A DNA stretch of 64,000 nt from a virus (taxonomy: Duplodnaviria; Caudoviricetes): the IMG/VR virus record IMGVR_UViG_3300005611_000001; one strand, given 5' to 3'. The translations under genes were made by a program, and so were the position numbers. The notes below the pieces were generated by a model. It ran no database searches, was not told where the DNA came from, and saw only the letters and a program-made list of their open reading frames with translations. Of the stretch, positions 1,060 through 55,866 are shown one piece after another. How positions within the stretch are numbered: position 1 is the first letter of the stretch; every line of letters starts with the position of its first letter.

Positions 1060-1754
1060 CAGAAAAATTAGTGCCTCTTATGAGAGATATACCCTTAAAC
1101 GATTTTGCAAAAGACATTCTTAATGAATCTCTTTGGTTTGTGCAAGACGAAAATTATAAAACAGTGCAAATGGCACAAGAGAAAAGATTTACTCCTGAAC
1201 TGGCTGATTGGTACACAAGTCACGAATATTTTGAGAAGATTAAAGCTATGGGTCCAGCACATGCTGGTTTCCCAGAAGTAAATGCTCTTTATTCGTATAC
1301 TTTAGGTCATCTTAGATTTAGCAAAGAAGAGAATCATCAAGCAAAAATCCCGCATGTAACAGAAAAACAAAACGGGTTTTTTGAAAAGATACAAAGAACG
1401 TTTAACTTAAAAAGAAGCGCACTATTTGCAATTTATCATCCAGGTTGCTACATCTCTTGGCATAACAATGCAAACGCTTCTGCATATAATTTTATTTTTA
1501 CATGGTCAGAAACAGGTGATGGCTATTGGGAACACTACGACAATCGAACAAAAGAATTCGTAAAAATTCCTGATAAGCCTGGTTGGCAGTGTAAAGCTGG
1601 ATACTTTGGTGCATATGAAGACGGTGAAGATAAGCTAGTTTATCACACAGCAAGAACATACAGTTCATTACGAATGACTGTCGCATTTATTCTTGATCGA
1701 TCAGAAATGTCTCAAGGCATTCAAGATTGGATTATTGACGATATTCACGCCTAA
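1056..1754 (+). CDS. Jelly-roll (2OG-Fe(II) oxygenase-like) protein, WHNN type
   Basis: YHPGCYISWHNNANA...YHTA...RMTVAF pattern; paralogue of 49119..49745. Confidence 0.55.
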   Translation: MTEKLVPLMRDIPLNDFAKDILNESLWFVQDENYKTVQMAQEKRFTPELADWYTSHEYFEKIKAMGPAHAGFPEVNALYSYTLGHLRFSKEENHQAKIPHVTEKQNGFFEKIQRTFNLKRSALFAIYHPGCYISWHNNANASAYNFIFTWSETGDGYWEHYDNRTKEFVKIPDKPGWQCKAGYFGAYEDGEDKLVYHTARTYSSLRMTVAFILDRSEMSQGIQDWIIDDIHA

Positions 1755-1759
1755 ATTCT

Positions 1760-1767
1760 TATAAATA
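1760..1767 (+). promoter_or_regulatory. T4-type late promoter
   Basis: TATAAATA in intergenic gap before structural genes. Confidence 0.8.
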
Positions 1768-1800
1768 GTGCCATAGGGTTTTTTTCTGGACAGAAGACTT

Positions 1801-2154
1801 ATGGCACGATATGAAGAATTAACAATTGATCAGGGTACAGACGTTTCAATTGATCTGTACCTGACAAACAAAGATGGCTCTGTGAAAGACTTGTCTGGTT
1901 TTTCTGCTGCTGCAAAAATGAGTACGCGGTACGGCACTTCAGATTCAGATAAAGTTGCATTTGCTGCGTATGTCACTGTTCCTCCAACTGATGGTATCGT
2001 GAACTTATCGTTAACAAACGTAGTCACAAATGCGCTAAATACTAGAAAAAGATATGTTTATGATGTTGAAATATCTTATGTAGACAGCGACTCAAACACC
2101 ATCGTAGAAAGGGTACTTGAAGGATTGATTACAGTTAATCCTTCTGTCACATGA
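1801..2154 (+). CDS. Virion structural protein (small baseplate-associated beta-sandwich)
   Basis: LTIDQGTD...DLSGFSAAAKM...YVYDVEI...RVLEGLITVNPSVT pattern common in T4-like marine phage structural modules; follows late promoter. Confidence 0.7.
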   Translation: MARYEELTIDQGTDVSIDLYLTNKDGSVKDLSGFSAAAKMSTRYGTSDSDKVAFAAYVTVPPTDGIVNLSLTNVVTNALNTRKRYVYDVEISYVDSDSNTIVERVLEGLITVNPSVT

Positions 2155-2161
2155 GGTCAGC

Positions 2162-3289
2162 ATGACAGATCAAATAGTACAAGCTGGTAATGTAACGCTA
2201 GTTAGCAAAATAACTTACGGCACTCCTTTGCGTACGGCTGTGATATCTTCTAGTGCTGACATCGATGCTATTGTGGGGCTAAGCACTACTGGTGCTGTTG
2301 ATGGTTCTTTGTTCGTCTACGATTCTGATGCAGGCGAATGGCGCGCTTCTAATATTTTAAACAATCAAATAATCGATGGGCGTGTTTATCCATCTGATTC
2401 TGATCGCGCTCAGATTCTTATTCGTCGTTCTGGTACTCAAGGCGATCCTCTTGTTCTTAGAACAGGAGAGCTAGCGTATTCGTGGCTTCAAGACTCTGGA
2501 AGCCCCGTTGATGGATTTGGTAACGGCGGCGACAGGCTCTTTATTGGTGTAGGCACAGAAACAGATAGTAATGGTGTTGTTTACGCTGAACGCATCGAAG
2601 TTATCGGCGGTAAATACTTTACCGATCTTCTAAATCACGCTCACGGTACACTTACAGCATCTAGCGCTCTGATAGTAGACTCTGCAAAAAGAATAGATGA
2701 GTTTTATGCTGATGCAATCTTCATTGATAGTGCAAGCATCACAAGACTTTATATTAGCGACTCTGCAACTGCTCAAGACCTCAAAGTAACAAATCTTTTC
2801 ATTGCAAATGATATCTTAGCGACTGGCACTTCGACGTTCAACACAATCAATGTAAATCGATTGTCAACGTTCGACTCTGCAGTTACCATTGACGCTGCGC
2901 TTTCTGTTACTGAAACTCTGAATGTTACCGGGTTGACGACGCTTGATTCTGCGAACATCAATCGTCTGCAAGTTGATTCAAGTCTTTCGATTCTTGGTGA
3001 TCTTAGCATTAGTGGTGCAACAACTTTTGATTCTTCTGCGACATTTAACGGCGATATTTTTGTCGGTGATAGAGTTCTTAGAGAATTCATCGACAGCAGT
3101 GTTTTCAATCTTTTGATTGGTGGTCAATCAATCACACTAACATACAATGACTCTGCAAACACTTTGACGGTTGATGCTGATGTTGCTACAGTTTCTTTAC
3201 CTGGTGTTGCTTCTTTTGATTCGTCGCAGTTTTCGATTACTGGAGCTGGGCAAGTGTCTGTCATAGAATTAAATGGTGGGACTTATTAA
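2162..3289 (+). CDS. Tail fibre/virion protein with Mtd_N-like segment
   Basis: ILIRRSGTQGDPLVLRTGELAYS motif; beta-rich; 14 DS dipeptides. Confidence 0.65.
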   Translation: MTDQIVQAGNVTLVSKITYGTPLRTAVISSSADIDAIVGLSTTGAVDGSLFVYDSDAGEWRASNILNNQIIDGRVYPSDSDRAQILIRRSGTQGDPLVLRTGELAYSWLQDSGSPVDGFGNGGDRLFIGVGTETDSNGVVYAERIEVIGGKYFTDLLNHAHGTLTASSALIVDSAKRIDEFYADAIFIDSASITRLYISDSATAQDLKVTNLFIANDILATGTSTFNTINVNRLSTFDSAVTIDAALSVTETLNVTGLTTLDSANINRLQVDSSLSILGDLSISGATTFDSSATFNGDIFVGDRVLREFIDSSVFNLLIGGQSITLTYNDSANTLTVDADVATVSLPGVASFDSSQFSITGAGQVSVIELNGGTY

Positions 3290-3330: not shown

Positions 3331-5667
3331 ATGGTAGACACAAGATTAATTAATAAACAATCTTCTGTACCTGGTAAAAGACCCGGCATTTCCGATCTGC
3401 AACTTGGTGAAATTGCTATCAATACGCATGATGGCAAAATGTTCATCAAGCAAGACAGAAACGGAAATATCGAAGTTGTTCAGGTCGGTGACGATCCCAC
3501 TGAAAACGTATACTATGTGTCAAAGGGCGGTAAAAAAGGTAATGCGGGAACATCACTTTCAGATGCTTTTGCTACGCTAGATTCTGCAGTAACAACGCTT
3601 CAGACTCTGGAAGCTTTTACTTTTAATGAAGGCACTTGCACTAGAGACCTAGGGCTTATCTTAGATGGTCTTCAATACGACATTGCTTTCGGTACAAACT
3701 ATAATGCAGTGACTTCTGGTCTTGCATATCAGCGCGCGGGCTCTGTAAAAGTAATCGATGAGCAACTGGTAGCTACAAGAAGCGCGTTCAATGAAGTGAA
3801 GGGTGCCATAGCGTCTGACCCTATTGTAAAACTCAGCACAGGCTATGACGGTGCGCTAGAAAGAAGTAATCGGCATTGGTCGGAAGTTGTTGACATTCTT
3901 GTTAATGGCGTACAAAGCACAGAGACTGCAGCAGACGATCTCGTTTTTCCTGCGCCTGCAGTTCTTCCTACTCCAGACGCTGATGATGCTGCAGTTATTC
4001 TACAAAACAACCGTGAATGGTTTAAGACAGAAGTTGTAGAATATATTTCTACAAACGTTCCTGGTCTAGTTTACGACAGTGTAAGATGTCGCCGTGACGT
4101 TGGTTTTATTATCGACGGTCTTACGTTCGATATTCTTTATGGCGGTACGTTTGCAATTGATATAAACACTCGCGCATATTTCTCGTTCGGTTCGAATCAG
4201 CTAGGTGATAGCGCAAACGATCCTGAAGTTGTTGCGACAACACAAACTTATACACACCTTTCTAACATCATAGAAGAAGTTGTTCAGGGCAGTTTGACAT
4301 CGAATCTATCGTCCGGTGCAGACGAAACCGGTAACGGCGGGCAGTATGCTACAGCCACAGAATCTGTTATTCTTGCTAACAACTTCAGTATTCTAATTGA
4401 TGCTGTTACGGCAGGAAATCTTGACAGTGTTCCTGCAGTTGTTTTGCCAAATCTAACTTCTAGAGGTGTTGGATCTGATCTTGTAGCAGCTATCAATTCT
4501 ATAAACGATCAAAGAGATTTGTTTATTCTGCAAGGGGTGAAAAGAGCAACTGCAACTGGCGACGCAACAATTTTCTTGAAGAGCGGCGATTATGTAGTTA
4601 ACAATCCTCTGACACTGCCTGCCAAAACTTCTGTGATTGGTGACAACTTAAGAACAACTACTATTCGCCCGCAAAACGTCGATTCAGATATTTTCTACGT
4701 TAATACAGGTTGCTATATTAGAGACATTACTTTTAGGGATCATCAGAATGGTGCTGCGTGTGTTGCGTTCGATCCCAATGTAGATAGCCCTGGTGCAGGT
4801 CCTTTTATTATTCAGTCACCCTATATTCAAAACTGCACATCTATTACCACAAATGGTACTGGTCTGAAAGTAGATGGATCTAAAGCGACAGGGCTTAGAT
4901 CGATGGTTGCTGATGCATTTACTCAATACAATGCAGCAGGAATTGGGGTTCATATTCTCAATCGGGGTTATGCTCAGCTAGTTTCTATCTTCACAATTTC
5001 TACACAAACTGGAATTCTAGCTGAAGATGGTGGGCAATGCTCACTGACTAACTCTAACTCTAGCTTTGGTGATCGTGGGCTTGTTGCAACAGGTAGTAGT
5101 AAAGTTCTTTATTCTGGTACTTTGGATTCTGATTATTTCATATTTGACGATGTTATGATCGTTAATGAAATTACAAATCTGGATTCTACAGATTACTTAA
5201 ATCCATTTGGTCAGTATAAGCGCCCGAACTATGGTGACGCAATACTTTTCGATTCAGAAAATTATTACTACACAGTTCTTGATGTTGATTCGGTTGCTCC
5301 TGGGAAATATACAATTACATTTGAGCCACCTTTGAATCAGGACAAGTTAAGAAATCAAACGATTTCTTTTAAACAAAGATCAAATATCGTTACAAGTTCT
5401 CACACTTTCGAATTTGTGGGTGCTGGTACGAACACGTTTACAGCAATTCCTCAAAATGGTGGTATACCAGATCAAACAAAAGAAGTTGTTTTTGATTCAG
5501 CAAATAACGAAGGGCTTGTGGTATTCACAAGTACCGACCAACTTGGTGATTTTAGAATTGGTAGTGAATTGACAATTCGTAGACAGCTCGGTCGAATCGA
5601 AGGTGAAACTTTCGAAAGATCGCTGTATCAAATCTTAACTCCGTATATCCTAGCACTTGAGGGTTGA
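3331..5667 (+). CDS. Large virion protein (Mtd_N-like N-terminus, repeats, pectin-lyase-like beta-helix)
   Basis: KQSSVPGKRP...LQLGEIAINTHDGKMF; two C.RD.G.I.DGL..D..GTN/GGT repeats; IFLKSGDY...VIGDNLR beta-helix start. Confidence 0.7.
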   Translation: MVDTRLINKQSSVPGKRPGISDLQLGEIAINTHDGKMFIKQDRNGNIEVVQVGDDPTENVYYVSKGGKKGNAGTSLSDAFATLDSAVTTLQTLEAFTFNEGTCTRDLGLILDGLQYDIAFGTNYNAVTSGLAYQRAGSVKVIDEQLVATRSAFNEVKGAIASDPIVKLSTGYDGALERSNRHWSEVVDILVNGVQSTETAADDLVFPAPAVLPTPDADDAAVILQNNREWFKTEVVEYISTNVPGLVYDSVRCRRDVGFIIDGLTFDILYGGTFAIDINTRAYFSFGSNQLGDSANDPEVVATTQTYTHLSNIIEEVVQGSLTSNLSSGADETGNGGQYATATESVILANNFSILIDAVTAGNLDSVPAVVLPNLTSRGVGSDLVAAINSINDQRDLFILQGVKRATATGDATIFLKSGDYVVNNPLTLPAKTSVIGDNLRTTTIRPQNVDSDIFYVNTGCYIRDITFRDHQNGAACVAFDPNVDSPGAGPFIIQSPYIQNCTSITTNGTGLKVDGSKATGLRSMVADAFTQYNAAGIGVHILNRGYAQLVSIFTISTQTGILAEDGGQCSLTNSNSSFGDRGLVATGSSKVLYSGTLDSDYFIFDDVMIVNEITNLDSTDYLNPFGQYKRPNYGDAILFDSENYYYTVLDVDSVAPGKYTITFEPPLNQDKLRNQTISFKQRSNIVTSSHTFEFVGAGTNTFTAIPQNGGIPDQTKEVVFDSANNEGLVVFTSTDQLGDFRIGSELTIRRQLGRIEGETFERSLYQILTPYILALEG

Positions 5668-6039: not shown

Positions 6040-7240
6040 ATTGATAAGGACCCTTAGTGGTCGAGTAAAAAGAACTGATCCAACTCAGTTAGACTCTGGC
6101 AGATTTGAGTATCTAACTCTTGATCAGGCTGAACCGGGCTTAGGTGTTCCTGAGTCAGACGGGGCCGTTCTTATTTCTAATACGGATGGAACACGTTCTT
6201 TTACTAACGAACTTATCATCAAGGGTCTTGCATTTCAATCTGGTCAGCTAGATTCTGCTGATTCTTCAAGTCTTTATGCGTTGTTTGTTAAGGGCAATCC
6301 TTTTGATGCTTCGGTTGATAGCATTGGGTTTCGTCGGATTAGCGACACTATTTTTGAAGCTGACACTCTTGACACAGTAACAAGTCGCGGCGCACAGACA
6401 GGAAATAATATTCAAGTCGGTGGGCTTATTGCTGACAGTGTGTCGATTCTAGGTAATCTTACCGTTCAAGGTACGACTACCACAATCAATTCGACAGTTC
6501 TGACAATCAATGACAAGAATATTGTTATTGCGGATGGTGCAGGAAGCGCAGCAGCAGCAGACAGCGCTGGTATTACCGTTGCGGGCGCAAACGCAAACAT
6601 CTACTATAAAGCAGGTACGAATAGCTGGAATATTGATCGGGCGTTAAATGTAGATTCGAATGTTGTTGTTGGTGGTAAACTTTTTATTAATGTTACTGAA
6701 ACACAGCAAACTTCGCTGGCTCTTTACATCGACGAAGTTACAGGTGAAGTGTACGCAGGAGCTCCTACGGGTGACAGTGCTGGTGAAGCGACATTTGCAA
6801 GACAAATTCAAATTACAAAAACTGATGACAGCGGAACATTCTATCCGCTGTTTGCTGGTGTCAATGCCGGCATTGATAGTGTAAATGCTGATTCGAATTT
6901 CTCTTATGATCCTTCTATTAATCAGCTAACACTTGGTAGACTTGTTCTAAATCAACTTGCAAACTATCCTACAGCAAGTAACTTCCTTGTCATTGACTCA
7001 AGCAACAATGTTGGATTTAGAGACGCAGGAAGCCTTCCGTTCTTAGACTCTGAACAAGACACTCTTGATACAGTAACGACAAGAGGGGACTCTACAAACA
7101 ATGCTATTACAGTGGGTAAAGTTACCACTGTTGACAGCGTGAGTGTAGGCAGCACACTTCAATTTGCAGATCAATTCTTAGATGGTTCGGGTAGAAGATT
7201 GGTAATTTACGATTCTACAGGTTCGGTTCTTTGGGGTTAA
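6032..7240 (+). CDS. Tail fibre-like virion protein
   Basis: Internal repeat DTLDTVT.RG..T.N.I.VG (x2); 16 DS dipeptides. Confidence 0.65.
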   Translation: MARLIRTLSGRVKRTDPTQLDSGRFEYLTLDQAEPGLGVPESDGAVLISNTDGTRSFTNELIIKGLAFQSGQLDSADSSSLYALFVKGNPFDASVDSIGFRRISDTIFEADTLDTVTSRGAQTGNNIQVGGLIADSVSILGNLTVQGTTTTINSTVLTINDKNIVIADGAGSAAAADSAGITVAGANANIYYKAGTNSWNIDRALNVDSNVVVGGKLFINVTETQQTSLALYIDEVTGEVYAGAPTGDSAGEATFARQIQITKTDDSGTFYPLFAGVNAGIDSVNADSNFSYDPSINQLTLGRLVLNQLANYPTASNFLVIDSSNNVGFRDAGSLPFLDSEQDTLDTVTTRGDSTNNAITVGKVTTVDSVSVGSTLQFADQFLDGSGRRLVIYDSTGSVLWG

Positions 7241-54640: not shown

Positions 54641-54874
54641 ATGGCAAACACATTTAAGTTTTATCTTCCTTTAATAGTAATTTTTGCTCTTTGCGTTTTC
54701 GGTCTGTTCGCGCCTGTAATCTACAGCGATGTGTACGGTGAGATTCTGAACAACTCACCAACGCTTTACATGCCGATGGTGAATGTTGATTATCTGACCA
54801 ATGAAATGTGCAATGATCCCACCAAACTGCACTATGTTCTTTGCGGTCTTGATGACTTGAATACTGTAGCATAA
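54641..54874 (+). CDS. Small membrane-anchored protein
   Basis: N-terminal hydrophobic helix. Confidence 0.6.
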   Translation: MANTFKFYLPLIVIFALCVFGLFAPVIYSDVYGEILNNSPTLYMPMVNVDYLTNEMCNDPTKLHYVLCGLDDLNTVA

Positions 54875-54884
54875 TCGGTTATAC

Positions 54885-55008
54885 TATATACTATAGAACG
54901 CACTGCTTTGATCTAGAAGTGGCAAAGGCTACAATCAGACTAAGATCCCTCCATTAGGAGGGTACGCGGGGGAGGATCCCGCAGGCAGTGCGTCTCTTTA
55001 GAGTATAG
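54885..55008 (+). ncRNA. Unassigned multi-stem structured element 1
   Basis: Closing stem acgcactgc(54898-906)/gcagtgcgt(54985-993); inner hairpins gtggc-aaag-gctac, ccctcc-atta-ggaggg, gcggg-ggaggat-cccgc. Confidence 0.55.
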
Positions 55009-55102
55009 ATTGGGCAGAGCGAACATAACTTGGAACATAAACTCGTTGCTTCCAAGTGACTGACCGATTCCTAAGCGAGGTGCGGAATCCTAGCAATCTA
55101 TA
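55004..55102 (+). ncRNA. Unassigned structured element 2 (junction with possible kissing loops)
   Basis: Closing stem tatagattg/caatctata; hairpins acttggaa/ttccaagt and gattcc/ggaatc; loops ctcgtt and agcgag complementary. Confidence 0.55.
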
Positions 55103-55104
55103 AA

Positions 55105-55197
55105 GTCCTAAGGATTTAAAATCCTGGGCAGATTAATCACCGTGCGTGAAACTCGTTTCGGTTTGATTAGCAGCGGGTGGAAGCCCCGCACCTTTTT
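55105..55197 (+). ncRNA. Unassigned structured element 3
   Basis: gtcc-aggat/atcct-gggc hairpin, taatca/tgatta arm, gcggg-tggaagc-cccgc T-arm-like hairpin followed by T-run. Confidence 0.4.
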
Positions 55198-55272
55198 AGA
55201 ATAGGCACTGAGTATGCTTAAGCATCAGTTAGTCCTGTAGAGTCGCAATCTTGGGCAACAGTGTCTGTTCTA
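55197..55272 (+). ncRNA. Unassigned structured element 4 (76 nt)
   Basis: 14-bp closing stem tagaataggcactg/cagtgtctgttcta with G-U pairs; inner atgc-ttaa-gcat and gtcc/gggc arms. Confidence 0.5.
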
Positions 55273-55274
55273 AT

Positions 55275-55580
55275 TTATTCGATGAAGCGGAGAGAAAGGT
55301 GATCTGGACAGAGGTTCAACTCCTCTCACCTCCACCAAAAGCACATACGCTGGATATGCAGATAGCATATTGAGACATAAGAAACATCAGGTATGTGCTT
55401 TTGATGGGGGTGTACTGGTTTCGACAGGTGCTAAGTATCAAAGTGGAGAATCGTCAAGCGCTGACGCTAAACAGAGCAACCTAAAATAAACGCAAACGAT
55501 GACGTTTATACCGAGGACTTTGCGCTAGCAGCGTAAACCTCGCGGGGTTCGCCGGAGCCTTGTTACCCAAGTCCGGCACT
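55275..55580 (+). ncRNA. ssrA: Circularly permuted (two-piece) tmRNA
   Basis: T-arm agagg-TTCAACT-cctct and CACCUCC-A-CCA end at 55337; hairpin intervening segment; 5' end GGGGGUG at 55406 giving G3-U70; pk1; tag ANDDVYTEDFALAA* at 55492-55536. Confidence 0.93.
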
Positions 55581-55599
55581 AATTCGGAGAAATCTACAA

Positions 55600-55866
55600 A
55601 TGAAACCATTCAGTCAATACATTACAGAGTATAATGATGAAACTCTTGTGAAGAAGATAAAGCACCCTAGTGGGACCGTTTTAATGATCTCTCGCTACAA
55701 GAACGGACCCGATGAAGGTAAGTACATTGTTCGTGTATCCAAGAGTAATTATGAACGTGGAAAGCAGAATCGCACGATGCGAGCTATACACGATAAGCCT
55801 CTCGATGCAGAAGCAGCCGTCGCCCTTTTTAATAAAAGAAAGAAATCGATCTGGAAGAAAAAATGA
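55600..55866 (+). CDS. Basic protein with capsid-targeting-like N-terminus (putative internal head protein)
   Basis: GGAGA RBS; MKPFSQYITE resembles T4 IP leader MKTYQEFIAE; Lys/Arg-rich. Confidence 0.6.
   Translation: MKPFSQYITEYNDETLVKKIKHPSGTVLMISRYKNGPDEGKYIVRVSKSNYERGKQNRTMRAIHDKPLDAEAAVALFNKRKKSIWKKK

Follow-up and report, generated by a model that had tools for sequence, protein, structure and literature searches.

A narrowly distributed structured RNA module in the RNA islands of uncultured T4-like phages

The 64,000-nucleotide stretch of IMG/VR record IMGVR_UViG_3300005611_000001 analyzed here (hereafter, the window) comes from a contig of an uncultured aquatic T4-like phage (myovirus). 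It codes for a tail sheath, a portal, a gp43-type DNA polymerase and a DnaB-type helicase, and the identity of the DNA polymerase to its closest cultured relatives is only 49-56%. Between the stop of a small gene at 54874 and the next gene start at 55600 lies a 720-nt gap, which holds a σ70-type promoter, the RNA modules E1, E2 and E3, a cassette termed L, and a permuted two-piece transfer-messenger RNA (tmRNA) gene, in that order (Table 1). Here we describe E2, a 99-nt element. No open reading frame (ORF) of at least 40 aa was found over 54875-55250 on either strand, and none overlapped E2. A nucleotide search with the 725-nt island and the 10 kb around it gave no match among 50,697 GenBank phages. 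Upon folding, the region between the promoter and the tmRNA formed four RNA domains, each closed separately. The promoter hexamers and spacer are kept in the related contigs L001, L009, L012, L013, L015, L016 and L022. E1 orthologues are 94-100% identical, and the copy in L012 bears a compensatory change from GCGGG/CCCGC to GUGGG/CCCAC. The 3' end of E3 is a terminator-like hairpin (55173-55189) followed by a U-run, as detected by a terminator scan. The tmRNA, carrying the tag ANDDVYTEDFALAA, was recognized by Rfam RF04321 at 113.9 bits over 55277-55536 and by beta_tmRNA at 81.9 bits; the 3' limit given for it in Table 1 is an approximate estimate for the end of the coding piece. The 720 nt from promoter to tmRNA appear to be one non-coding transcription unit.

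To describe the fold of E2, we used the minimum free energy (MFE) structure and the pair probabilities of the ensemble. The closing stem consists of nine perfect pairs that can be read from the sequence. Inside it, the helix order is a simple nesting of closing stem, P2, hairpin 1 and hairpin 2, giving a three-way junction closed by the terminal helix; the closing stem and the two inner hairpins are those that a preliminary description of this DNA had proposed. In the ensemble, both hairpins and the closing stem had pair probabilities of 0.95 or more, apart from the outermost pair of that stem (0.66); the value was 0.83 for the GGCAG/CUGACC helix P2, whose GGCAG strand is part of a UGGGCAGA block also present in E3. 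The MFE of the 99-nt E2 was -26.3 kcal/mol (z = -2.0), with 5 of 200 shuffled sequences folding equally well; for a full-length orthologue with a 16-bp terminal helix it was -36.9 kcal/mol (z = -4.5), a value reached by 0 of 200 shuffles. These results indicate that the nested fold of E2 is thermodynamically well defined and robust.

We searched for further copies by exact-pattern scans of IMG/VR and the Joint Genome Institute (JGI) metagenomes. E2 was found in eight further distinct phage contigs (L012, L014, L015, L016, L017, L019, L020 and L022; L021, L023, L024 and L025 are duplicates of four of these) and also in contigs of two metatranscriptome libraries. The copies are 96-100% identical to each other; in the same contigs, identity is 70-80% for the flanking ORFs and 84-89% for the tmRNA acceptor piece. 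Only five sites vary: G/A at 55003, U55031C, G55045U, an indel patch at 55056-59, and A55096G, the last of which is present in most orthologues and turns a U-A pair of the closing stem into U.G. The junction (15 nt) and the loops (12-13 nt) were invariant in the alignment. Each contig carries one copy, and every copy has the same orientation as the tmRNA or tRNA genes next to it. The neighbors differ from contig to contig (Table 1). Counted over all copies, at least seven kinds of neighbor stand to the left, among them E1, the promoter, an abiF motif, an L module, a large RNA of unknown kind and a further module, and seven kinds to the right, namely E3, hairpin H, hairpin H2, an abiF motif, L, the tmRNA and an ORF. 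E2 stands in the tmRNA leader in the window and inside tRNA arrays in L016 and L017; in X15, a contig from an RNA library, it is 12 nt upstream of the tmRNA acceptor piece. Many copies adjoin neither a tRNA nor a tmRNA. Some ends of the RNA-library contigs (54994-54997 or 55102) and their uncovered parts were considered as RNA ends and rejected, as they reflect other module arrangements.

A covariance model (R1) built from nine E2 copies retrieved only these copies and their duplicates from 231 kb of related loci, and E3 went unmatched even at E ≤ 10. Three further anchored patterns, with stems or loops left free, returned the same IMG/VR contigs and no diverged E2. In 185,579 bacterial and archaeal species genomes, a three-block E2/E3 pattern had 0 hits; a two-loop pattern had 8 hits in unrelated taxa, none of them fitting R1 and fewer than the approximately 28 expected by chance according to our own rough estimate. 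Taken together, E2 is a new phage RNA module of narrow distribution and high conservation, discrete in fold and setting, that has been shuffled between genomic contexts. The preliminary description had placed a discrete structured RNA within an RNA polycistron, and this part of it is borne out by the conserved promoter upstream, the tmRNA downstream and the tRNA-array copies in relatives.

Most copies have a longer terminal helix of 16 bp (TTTAGAATATAGATTG / CAGTCTATATTCTAAA) than the window copy. In L012, L016, L019, L020 and L022, the 5' half cTTTAGAg pairs with TTCTAAA just 3' of E2 to complete the 16 bp; the helix of L017 has a GU mismatch, and L014 has no 5' half. In the window and in L015, the 3' TTCTAAA is gone at the E2-E3 junction, which leaves the window copy with 9 bp; the E2 core is intact in both, although one half of the inverted repeat is missing. 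L-type and other cassettes have the outer 8-9 bp of the helix in common with E2; these are cassettes of 72-173 nt, which lie a few nucleotides from tRNAs in L035, L034, L017 and L020. They form a family in which the cargo differs (72-173 nt) and the 14-16-bp terminal helix is constant, TTAGAATAG(A/G)CA(C/T)T...AGTGTCTATTCTAA; in the L module of the window the helix reads TTTAGAATAGGCACTG...CAGTGTCTGTTCTAA.

The preliminary description had also proposed that the loops of the two hairpins kiss in a compact fold and that an alternative pairing links E2 to E3. Both complementarities exist. CUCGUU (55042-55047) lies in the loop of hairpin 1, which contains AAACUCGUU, and can form six pairs, five Watson-Crick and one G.U, with AGCGAG (55074-55079) in the loop of hairpin 2; AGGUGCGG at 55078-55085 is the exact complement of ccgcacct (55186-55193) at the 3' end of E3. 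Because the two complementarities overlap by 2 nt, the kiss and the E2-E3 pairing are mutually exclusive. Both loop hexamers were mostly unpaired in the ensemble. When the loops were shuffled, 11.6% of the shuffles gave at least six contiguous pairs and 4.1% reached the duplex energy of -8.1 kcal/mol, indicating that the loop-loop complementarity alone is within chance. Similarly, the overall E2-E3 duplex energy was matched by 10.7% of shuffles.

Comparison of the copies did not favor the kiss. Five of its six pairs never vary among the nine sequences, and one sequence, L022, breaks the central pair 55045-55076 by G55045U without a compensating change. U55031C, present in L012 and independently in X15, creates a C.A mismatch in hairpin 1, and the only other informative changes are from U-A to U.G in the closing stem. 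For the nested structure plus the kiss, including the loop-loop pairs that the preliminary description had offered for such a check, no covariation measure rose above shuffles in the nine-sequence alignment. There is no covariation for the kiss because the orthologues are 96-100% identical, and with one variant breaking the kiss and another a hairpin-1 pair, the fold could not be confirmed comparatively. In addition, the two arms that a kiss would join differ in length: one has about 13-15 bp and an internal loop, the other 6 bp. From the sequences at hand, a kiss in E2 appears mildly disfavored. The 8-bp pairing with E3 is not obligatory, since E2 occurs without E3 (L014, L019, L022 and X15) and E3 without E2 (L034 and L035).

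E3 is partly paralogous to E2. It carries the UGGGCAGA and AAACUCGUU blocks in the same order, and the probability of two colinear shared 8-mers or longer is p ~0.0016; the AAACUCGUU 9-mer of the E2 hairpin 1 loop recurs in an E3 hairpin loop at 55149-55157. Local alignments of E2 with E3, E1 and L were each non-significant when taken singly. E3 has its own AGCGGG downstream of its hairpin-loop CUCGUU, with a 7-bp pairing potential between them, and the last U of the motif is changed to C in L012, L016 and L035 without compensation. Apart from this kinship, E3 contains pieces of phage tRNAs. Its first hairpin (55109-55124) matches 15 of 16 nt of the phage tRNA-Leu(UAA) anticodon stem-loop, with a 7-nt loop UUUAAAA and a score reached by 1 of 400 shuffles, and within 55149-55181 the two strands of the tRNA-Ser(GCU) anticodon stem recur together with their flanks, the order of the strands being reversed (p ~0.002). 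E3 therefore looks tRNA-derived or like an anticodon-arm mimic. The corresponding idea for E2, a permuted tRNA-Ser anticodon arm, was rejected, as the two have only 6-mers in common, which is at chance level.

We then compared E2 with known RNA families. With Rfam 15 (4227 models) at the gathering threshold, tmRNA_permuted was the only match in the window, and at E ≤ 10 over 54700-55700 nothing overlapped 55004-55102. ARAGORN called no tRNA in E2 at its default or 80% thresholds and gave only inconsistent calls at 60%; the tRNA model RF00005 did not match E2, a T-arm-like reading of 55076-55093 had a pair probability of 0.00, and the similarity of E2 to 23 phage tRNAs was not significant (51 of 400 shuffles scored as high). 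Several single likenesses were followed up and rejected. A hammerhead is contradicted by CUGACCGA at 55060-67, which has C instead of G at position 8 of CUGANGA, and by the absence of a GAAA partner. An HDV-like (hepatitis delta virus-like) or theta ribozyme needs the nested double pseudoknot P1-P2-P3-P1'-P4-P2', and E2 is simply nested. The AAGUCC...GGGCAG strings recall conserved region I of RNase P RNA, for which there was no Rfam match at E ≤ 10. The hairpin 1 loop CUCGUUGC is complementary over 8 nt to the conserved 1100 region of 16S rRNA; this is within chance and absent from E3.

As to what E2 does, we see about an even chance that it is an autonomous, self-folding non-coding RNA cassette that is cut from a polycistronic precursor and persists as a stable RNA acting in trans. 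An early σ70-type promoter would transcribe E2 within a polycistronic stable-RNA precursor, together with the two-piece tmRNA here and with tRNA arrays in sibling phages. Endonucleolytic cuts at or beside the terminal helix would free E2 from its neighbors, the most likely enzyme being host RNase III acting on the 16-bp helix common to several cassettes, and E2 would remain as a stable small RNA of ~100 nt with a trans function. Our best guess, by analogy, is that it may bind or decoy a host protein or RNase. Such a host-directed role is suggested because antitoxin-type abiF motifs fill the same slots in sibling phages. Motifs of this family (RF03085, 41-57 bits) are found in equivalent slots of relatives, one or two per slot; abiF-motif RNA has been shown by experiment to be the antitoxin of the AbiF toxin (bioRxiv 10.1101/2025.04.15.648962). 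A further-reaching proposal, which we regard as quite unlikely, makes E2 the founder of a class of interchangeable, structured, trans-acting RNAs that enter tmRNA/tRNA islands behind a common terminal helix; each would counter a host defense that targets RNA or respond to a signal in the cell, and in E2 the CUCGUU/AGCGAG kiss would be a switch that gates the E3 terminator as well.

Several observations weigh against a stable trans-acting RNA. The two RNA-library contigs with E2 are assembled and also span the upstream ORF, and therefore DNA carry-over or read-through is possible. The high identity of E2 may reflect recent recombinational spread instead of selection; the excised intervening segment of the tmRNA is likewise 100% identical where present and elsewhere replaced outright. 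No helix of E2 has covariation support among the nine sequences, half of the terminal helix on which cutting by RNase III would depend is missing from the window copy, and the decoy idea is drawn from the neighborhood only. Finally, the two motif patterns led to no E2-like sequence in the 185,579 bacterial and archaeal genomes that the covariance model confirmed.

The main rival is palindromic debris spread by recombination. E2 would then be selfish or neutral palindromic DNA, MITE-like (miniature inverted-repeat transposable element-like) or a scrambled remnant of tRNA genes, spreading or persisting in the only non-coding islands that a densely packed phage genome tolerates, and its RNA fold would be a by-product without function. 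The 16-bp terminal inverted repeats, partly common to other cassettes, agree with this, as do the mosaic distribution of segments that are near-identical or replaced outright, the dispensable tmRNA intervening segment that behaves in the same way, the tRNA pieces in the sister module E3, and the shuffling of modules at short repeats that is on record for T4-type phages (PMC2839356, PMC4122927). By contrast, E2 is single-copy per contig, target-site duplications are not visible in its flanks, the orientation of the core to the RNA genes is constant in all contexts, the core was kept in the window and L015 after half the inverted repeat was lost, and E2's own tRNA similarity is no better than that of many shuffles; on balance, we consider debris unlikely. 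E2 could instead be cis punctuation, an insulator that serves as a folding unit and nuclease entry site for correct folding and maturation of the neighboring tmRNA or tRNAs, without a trans function, comparable to tRNA-like 't-elements' or rRNA processing stalks. All modules of these islands have terminal helices of their own that close them, and the linkers measure 0-12 nt; the same terminal helix recurs in several cassettes, the E2 of X15 stands 12 nt before the tmRNA acceptor piece, and two relatives have a hammerhead-like motif 5' of tRNA-Tyr, which makes dedicated processing devices plausible in this lineage. A spacer, on the other hand, would need neither an invariant 15-nt junction nor invariant 12-13-nt loops, L013 has the same tmRNA type without these modules and with only an abiF motif, and E2 is often away from any tRNA or tmRNA. 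Punctuation of this kind is, in our judgment, very unlikely.

The remaining alternatives were also raised in the preliminary description. In a switch, a kiss-locked three-way junction would alternate with a state in which AGGUGCGG pairs with the E3 terminator hairpin at its 3' strand, and so tune read-through into the tmRNA or tRNA genes, possibly under the control of a ligand or protein. The mutually exclusive complementarities, the terminator-like hairpin and U-run of E3 between promoter and tmRNA, the two motifs retained in E3, the colinear E2/E3 blocks beyond chance, and the invariant junction and loops of E2 fit such a device, and a riboswitch ahead of a phage tmRNA has been reported in phage Melnitz (PMC9004378). 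On the other side, E2 and E3 occur without each other, a hairpin of ~80 nt stands between them in L016 and L017, and contigs that lack E2 conserve the 3' strand of E3 just as well. With the uncompensated changes in the kiss (L022) and in the E3 motif, a loop complementarity within chance, arms of unequal length and no Rfam riboswitch match, a switch seems distinctly unlikely. Least of all do we expect E2 to belong to an undescribed class of self-cleaving ribozymes and to cleave the polycistronic precursor itself, a reading that we hold to be highly improbable. Its high sequence conservation, junction included, would suit one, as would the hammerhead-like motif in sibling islands, and ribozymes, including HDV-like theta ribozymes, are known to flank phage tRNAs and are linked to precursor processing (PMC10879173). 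Against this, E2 matches no Rfam ribozyme family at E ≤ 10, CUGACCGA fails the hammerhead core, and by eye the nested helix order has no HDV-type double pseudoknot; moreover, the position of E2 relative to functional RNAs is not constant, and therefore no consistent cleavage product can be defined. Of the preliminary interpretation, then, the structured RNA in a polycistron holds, and its kiss, switch and ribozyme are conjectural.

Table 1. Features of the window and of related contigs, with the neighbors of each E2 copy.
Feature	Contig	Position	Strand	Basis or neighbors
σ70-type promoter, TTGAAT-17-TATACT	window	54857-54885	+	consensus scan; conserved in relatives
E1, four-way-junction RNA module, separate from E2	window	54893-55000	+	closed domain on folding
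Orphan 5' half of ancestral outer terminal helix, cTTTAGAg	window	54996-55003	+	orthologue alignment
E2, element under study, 99 nt	window	55004-55102	+	stems and folding
E2 closing stem, 5' strand, tatagattg	window	55004-55012	+	pair probability 0.66-1.00
P2 inner helix, 5' strand GGCAG, paired with CUGACC 55060-55065	window	55013-55017	+	MFE
Hairpin 1, 8-bp stem 55028-55035/55050-55057	window	55028-55057	+	folding
P2, 3' strand, CUGACC	window	55060-55065	+	folding
Hairpin 2, 6-bp stem 55066-55071/55084-55089, 12-nt loop UAAGCGAGGUGC	window	55066-55089	+	folding
E2 closing stem, 3' strand, caatctata	window	55094-55102	+	folding
E3, partly paralogous to E2	window	55104-55198	+	terminator scan; colinear blocks common with E2
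L module, cassette with common terminal helix	window	55195-55274	+	folding; helix comparison
Permuted two-piece tmRNA gene	window	55277-55590	+	Rfam RF04321; ARAGORN
E2 copy	window			left, E1; right, E3
E2 copy	L015			left, promoter; right, E3
E2 copy	L012			left, E1; right, hairpin H (duplicate of tmRNA intervening segment), then E3
E2 copy	L016			left, abiF motif; right, H2, E3, tRNAs
E2 copy	L017			left, tRNA-Tyr, L; right, H2, E3, tRNAs; within 23-tRNA array
E2 copy	L019			left, unknown large RNA; right, abiF, tmRNA
E2 copy	L022			left, abiF; right, abiF, tmRNA
E2 copy	L020			left, other module; right, L, H3, E3, terminator
E2 copy	L014			left, contig end; right, small ORF, tmRNA
E2 copy	X15 (RNA-library contig)			left, E1; right, tmRNA
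Terminal-helix cassettes	L035	2475-2630, 4077-4249, 5882-5960, 6082-6153		
Terminal-helix cassette	L034	162-320		
Terminal-helix cassette	L017	4158-4236		
Terminal-helix cassette	L020	985-1063		
Terminal-helix cassette	window	55195-55274		
abiF motif	L009	5582-5618	-	RF03085
abiF motif	L013	7820-7857	+	RF03085
abiF motif	L015	2617-2654	-	RF03085
abiF motif	L016	673-709	-	RF03085
abiF motif	L019	1797-1833	-	RF03085
abiF motifs	L022	1714-1750 and 1873-1909	-	RF03085
abiF motif	L020	713-744	+	RF03085
Hammerhead-like motif	L017	~4329-4390	-	
Hammerhead-like motif	L035	2723-2775	-	

The islands of sibling phages contain other RNAs of note. In sibling lytic-type T4-like contigs, abiF motifs lie directly upstream of the tmRNA or beside E2. 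No Abi_2 gene was found on five of the abiF-bearing fragments, and these motifs are possibly orphan antitoxin mimics for counter-defense. The hammerhead-like motif consists of CUGAUGAG, stem II, CGAAA, a long stem III and NUA, and stops 3 nt short of tRNA-Tyr; Rfam Hammerhead_1 scores it at only 18 bits (E = 0.28), and between L017 and L035 a C-G pair of stem III is changed to U-A and a G.U pair of stem I to G-C. In L013 and L015, the sequence that forms the L module of the window serves as the intervening segment of the two-piece tmRNA. L012, in turn, has the intervening hairpin of the window type twice, the additional copy standing between E2 and E3 (~6083-6141, minus strand) with a compensatory 2-bp stem shortening. 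Within the tRNA array of L017, ARAGORN called a tRNA with an 8-nt anticodon loop and the four-base anticodon cagt (4504-4588, minus strand). Long non-coding stretches lie beside E2 or E3 in L019 (~1953-2230, minus strand) and L020 (~1150-1900, plus strand); they have strong σ70-type promoters (TTGACT or TTGACA, 17 nt, TATAAT) and no Rfam match at the gathering score, and may be additional large structured RNAs. The more distant tmRNAs of L003, L004 and L011 are preceded by another leader module, which is likewise conserved and has GGATCTGA...TC(T/G)GATCC as its closing helix, and structured leaders are therefore suggested to be common before phage two-piece tmRNAs.

E2 is notable mainly for the cassette architecture that it reveals. 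The lineage has a set of exchangeable, stable-RNA-like cassettes (E1, E2, E3, L and others) intermixed with the abiF motif, tRNAs, the tmRNA and the hammerhead-like motif. If the cassettes act in trans, these RNA islands would be the RNA counterpart of phage protein anti-defense islands, and further cassettes could be sought simply by way of the common terminal helix. Should the cassettes be debris, the locus would record how tRNA arrays make and shuffle structured junk that is tolerated in precursors.

Known systems resemble E2 in part. The T4 RNAs rnaC and rnaD (species 1 and 2) are small stable RNAs of 119-139 nt, annotated at the end of the T4 tRNA cluster; E2 has a like setting, within a stable-RNA/tRNA cluster on the same strand. 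By inspection only, E2 is without sequence or fold likeness to either, and the canonical T-arm-like GGGUUCGAAUCCC hairpin at the 3' end of rnaC has no equivalent in E2. To our knowledge, no function has been assigned to these T4 RNAs since their description in the 1970s. The abiF motif is likewise short and structured, and sibling phages have it in these slots, after the promoter or E2 and before the tmRNA. Its presence suggests that the islands carry host-directed RNAs that act in trans. It is a single hairpin with a large loop, whereas E2 is a three-way junction, and the 37-position RF03085 model matched neither the window nor E2. Aptamers of the purine-riboswitch type resemble E2 in that a closing helix (P1) encloses two hairpins whose loops are complementary, and in that the junction is invariant. 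E2 differs from them in its lack of an Rfam match, its very unequal arms, its lack of covariation and its variable context; with seven kinds of right neighbor and E3 absent in four copies, no fixed expression platform lies downstream. Theta ribozymes and the hammerheads beside phage tRNAs are, like E2, structured RNAs embedded in tRNA arrays, but E2 has neither core and lies at varying places with respect to tRNAs. Transcribed MITE hairpins can serve as RNase III substrates. As repeats that lie at module borders with shuffling, the Correia and ERIC MITEs and the PeSL cassettes of T4-type phages are similar to E2. Most E2 copies have the terminal inverted repeats of a MITE, 16 bp in length; unlike MITEs, E2 is single-copy and fixed in orientation, and neither target-site duplications in the flanks, nor many copies, nor both orientations were found in the E2 contigs. 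PeSL cassettes are promoter and stem-loop units that flank protein genes, whereas E2 has a complex conserved core.

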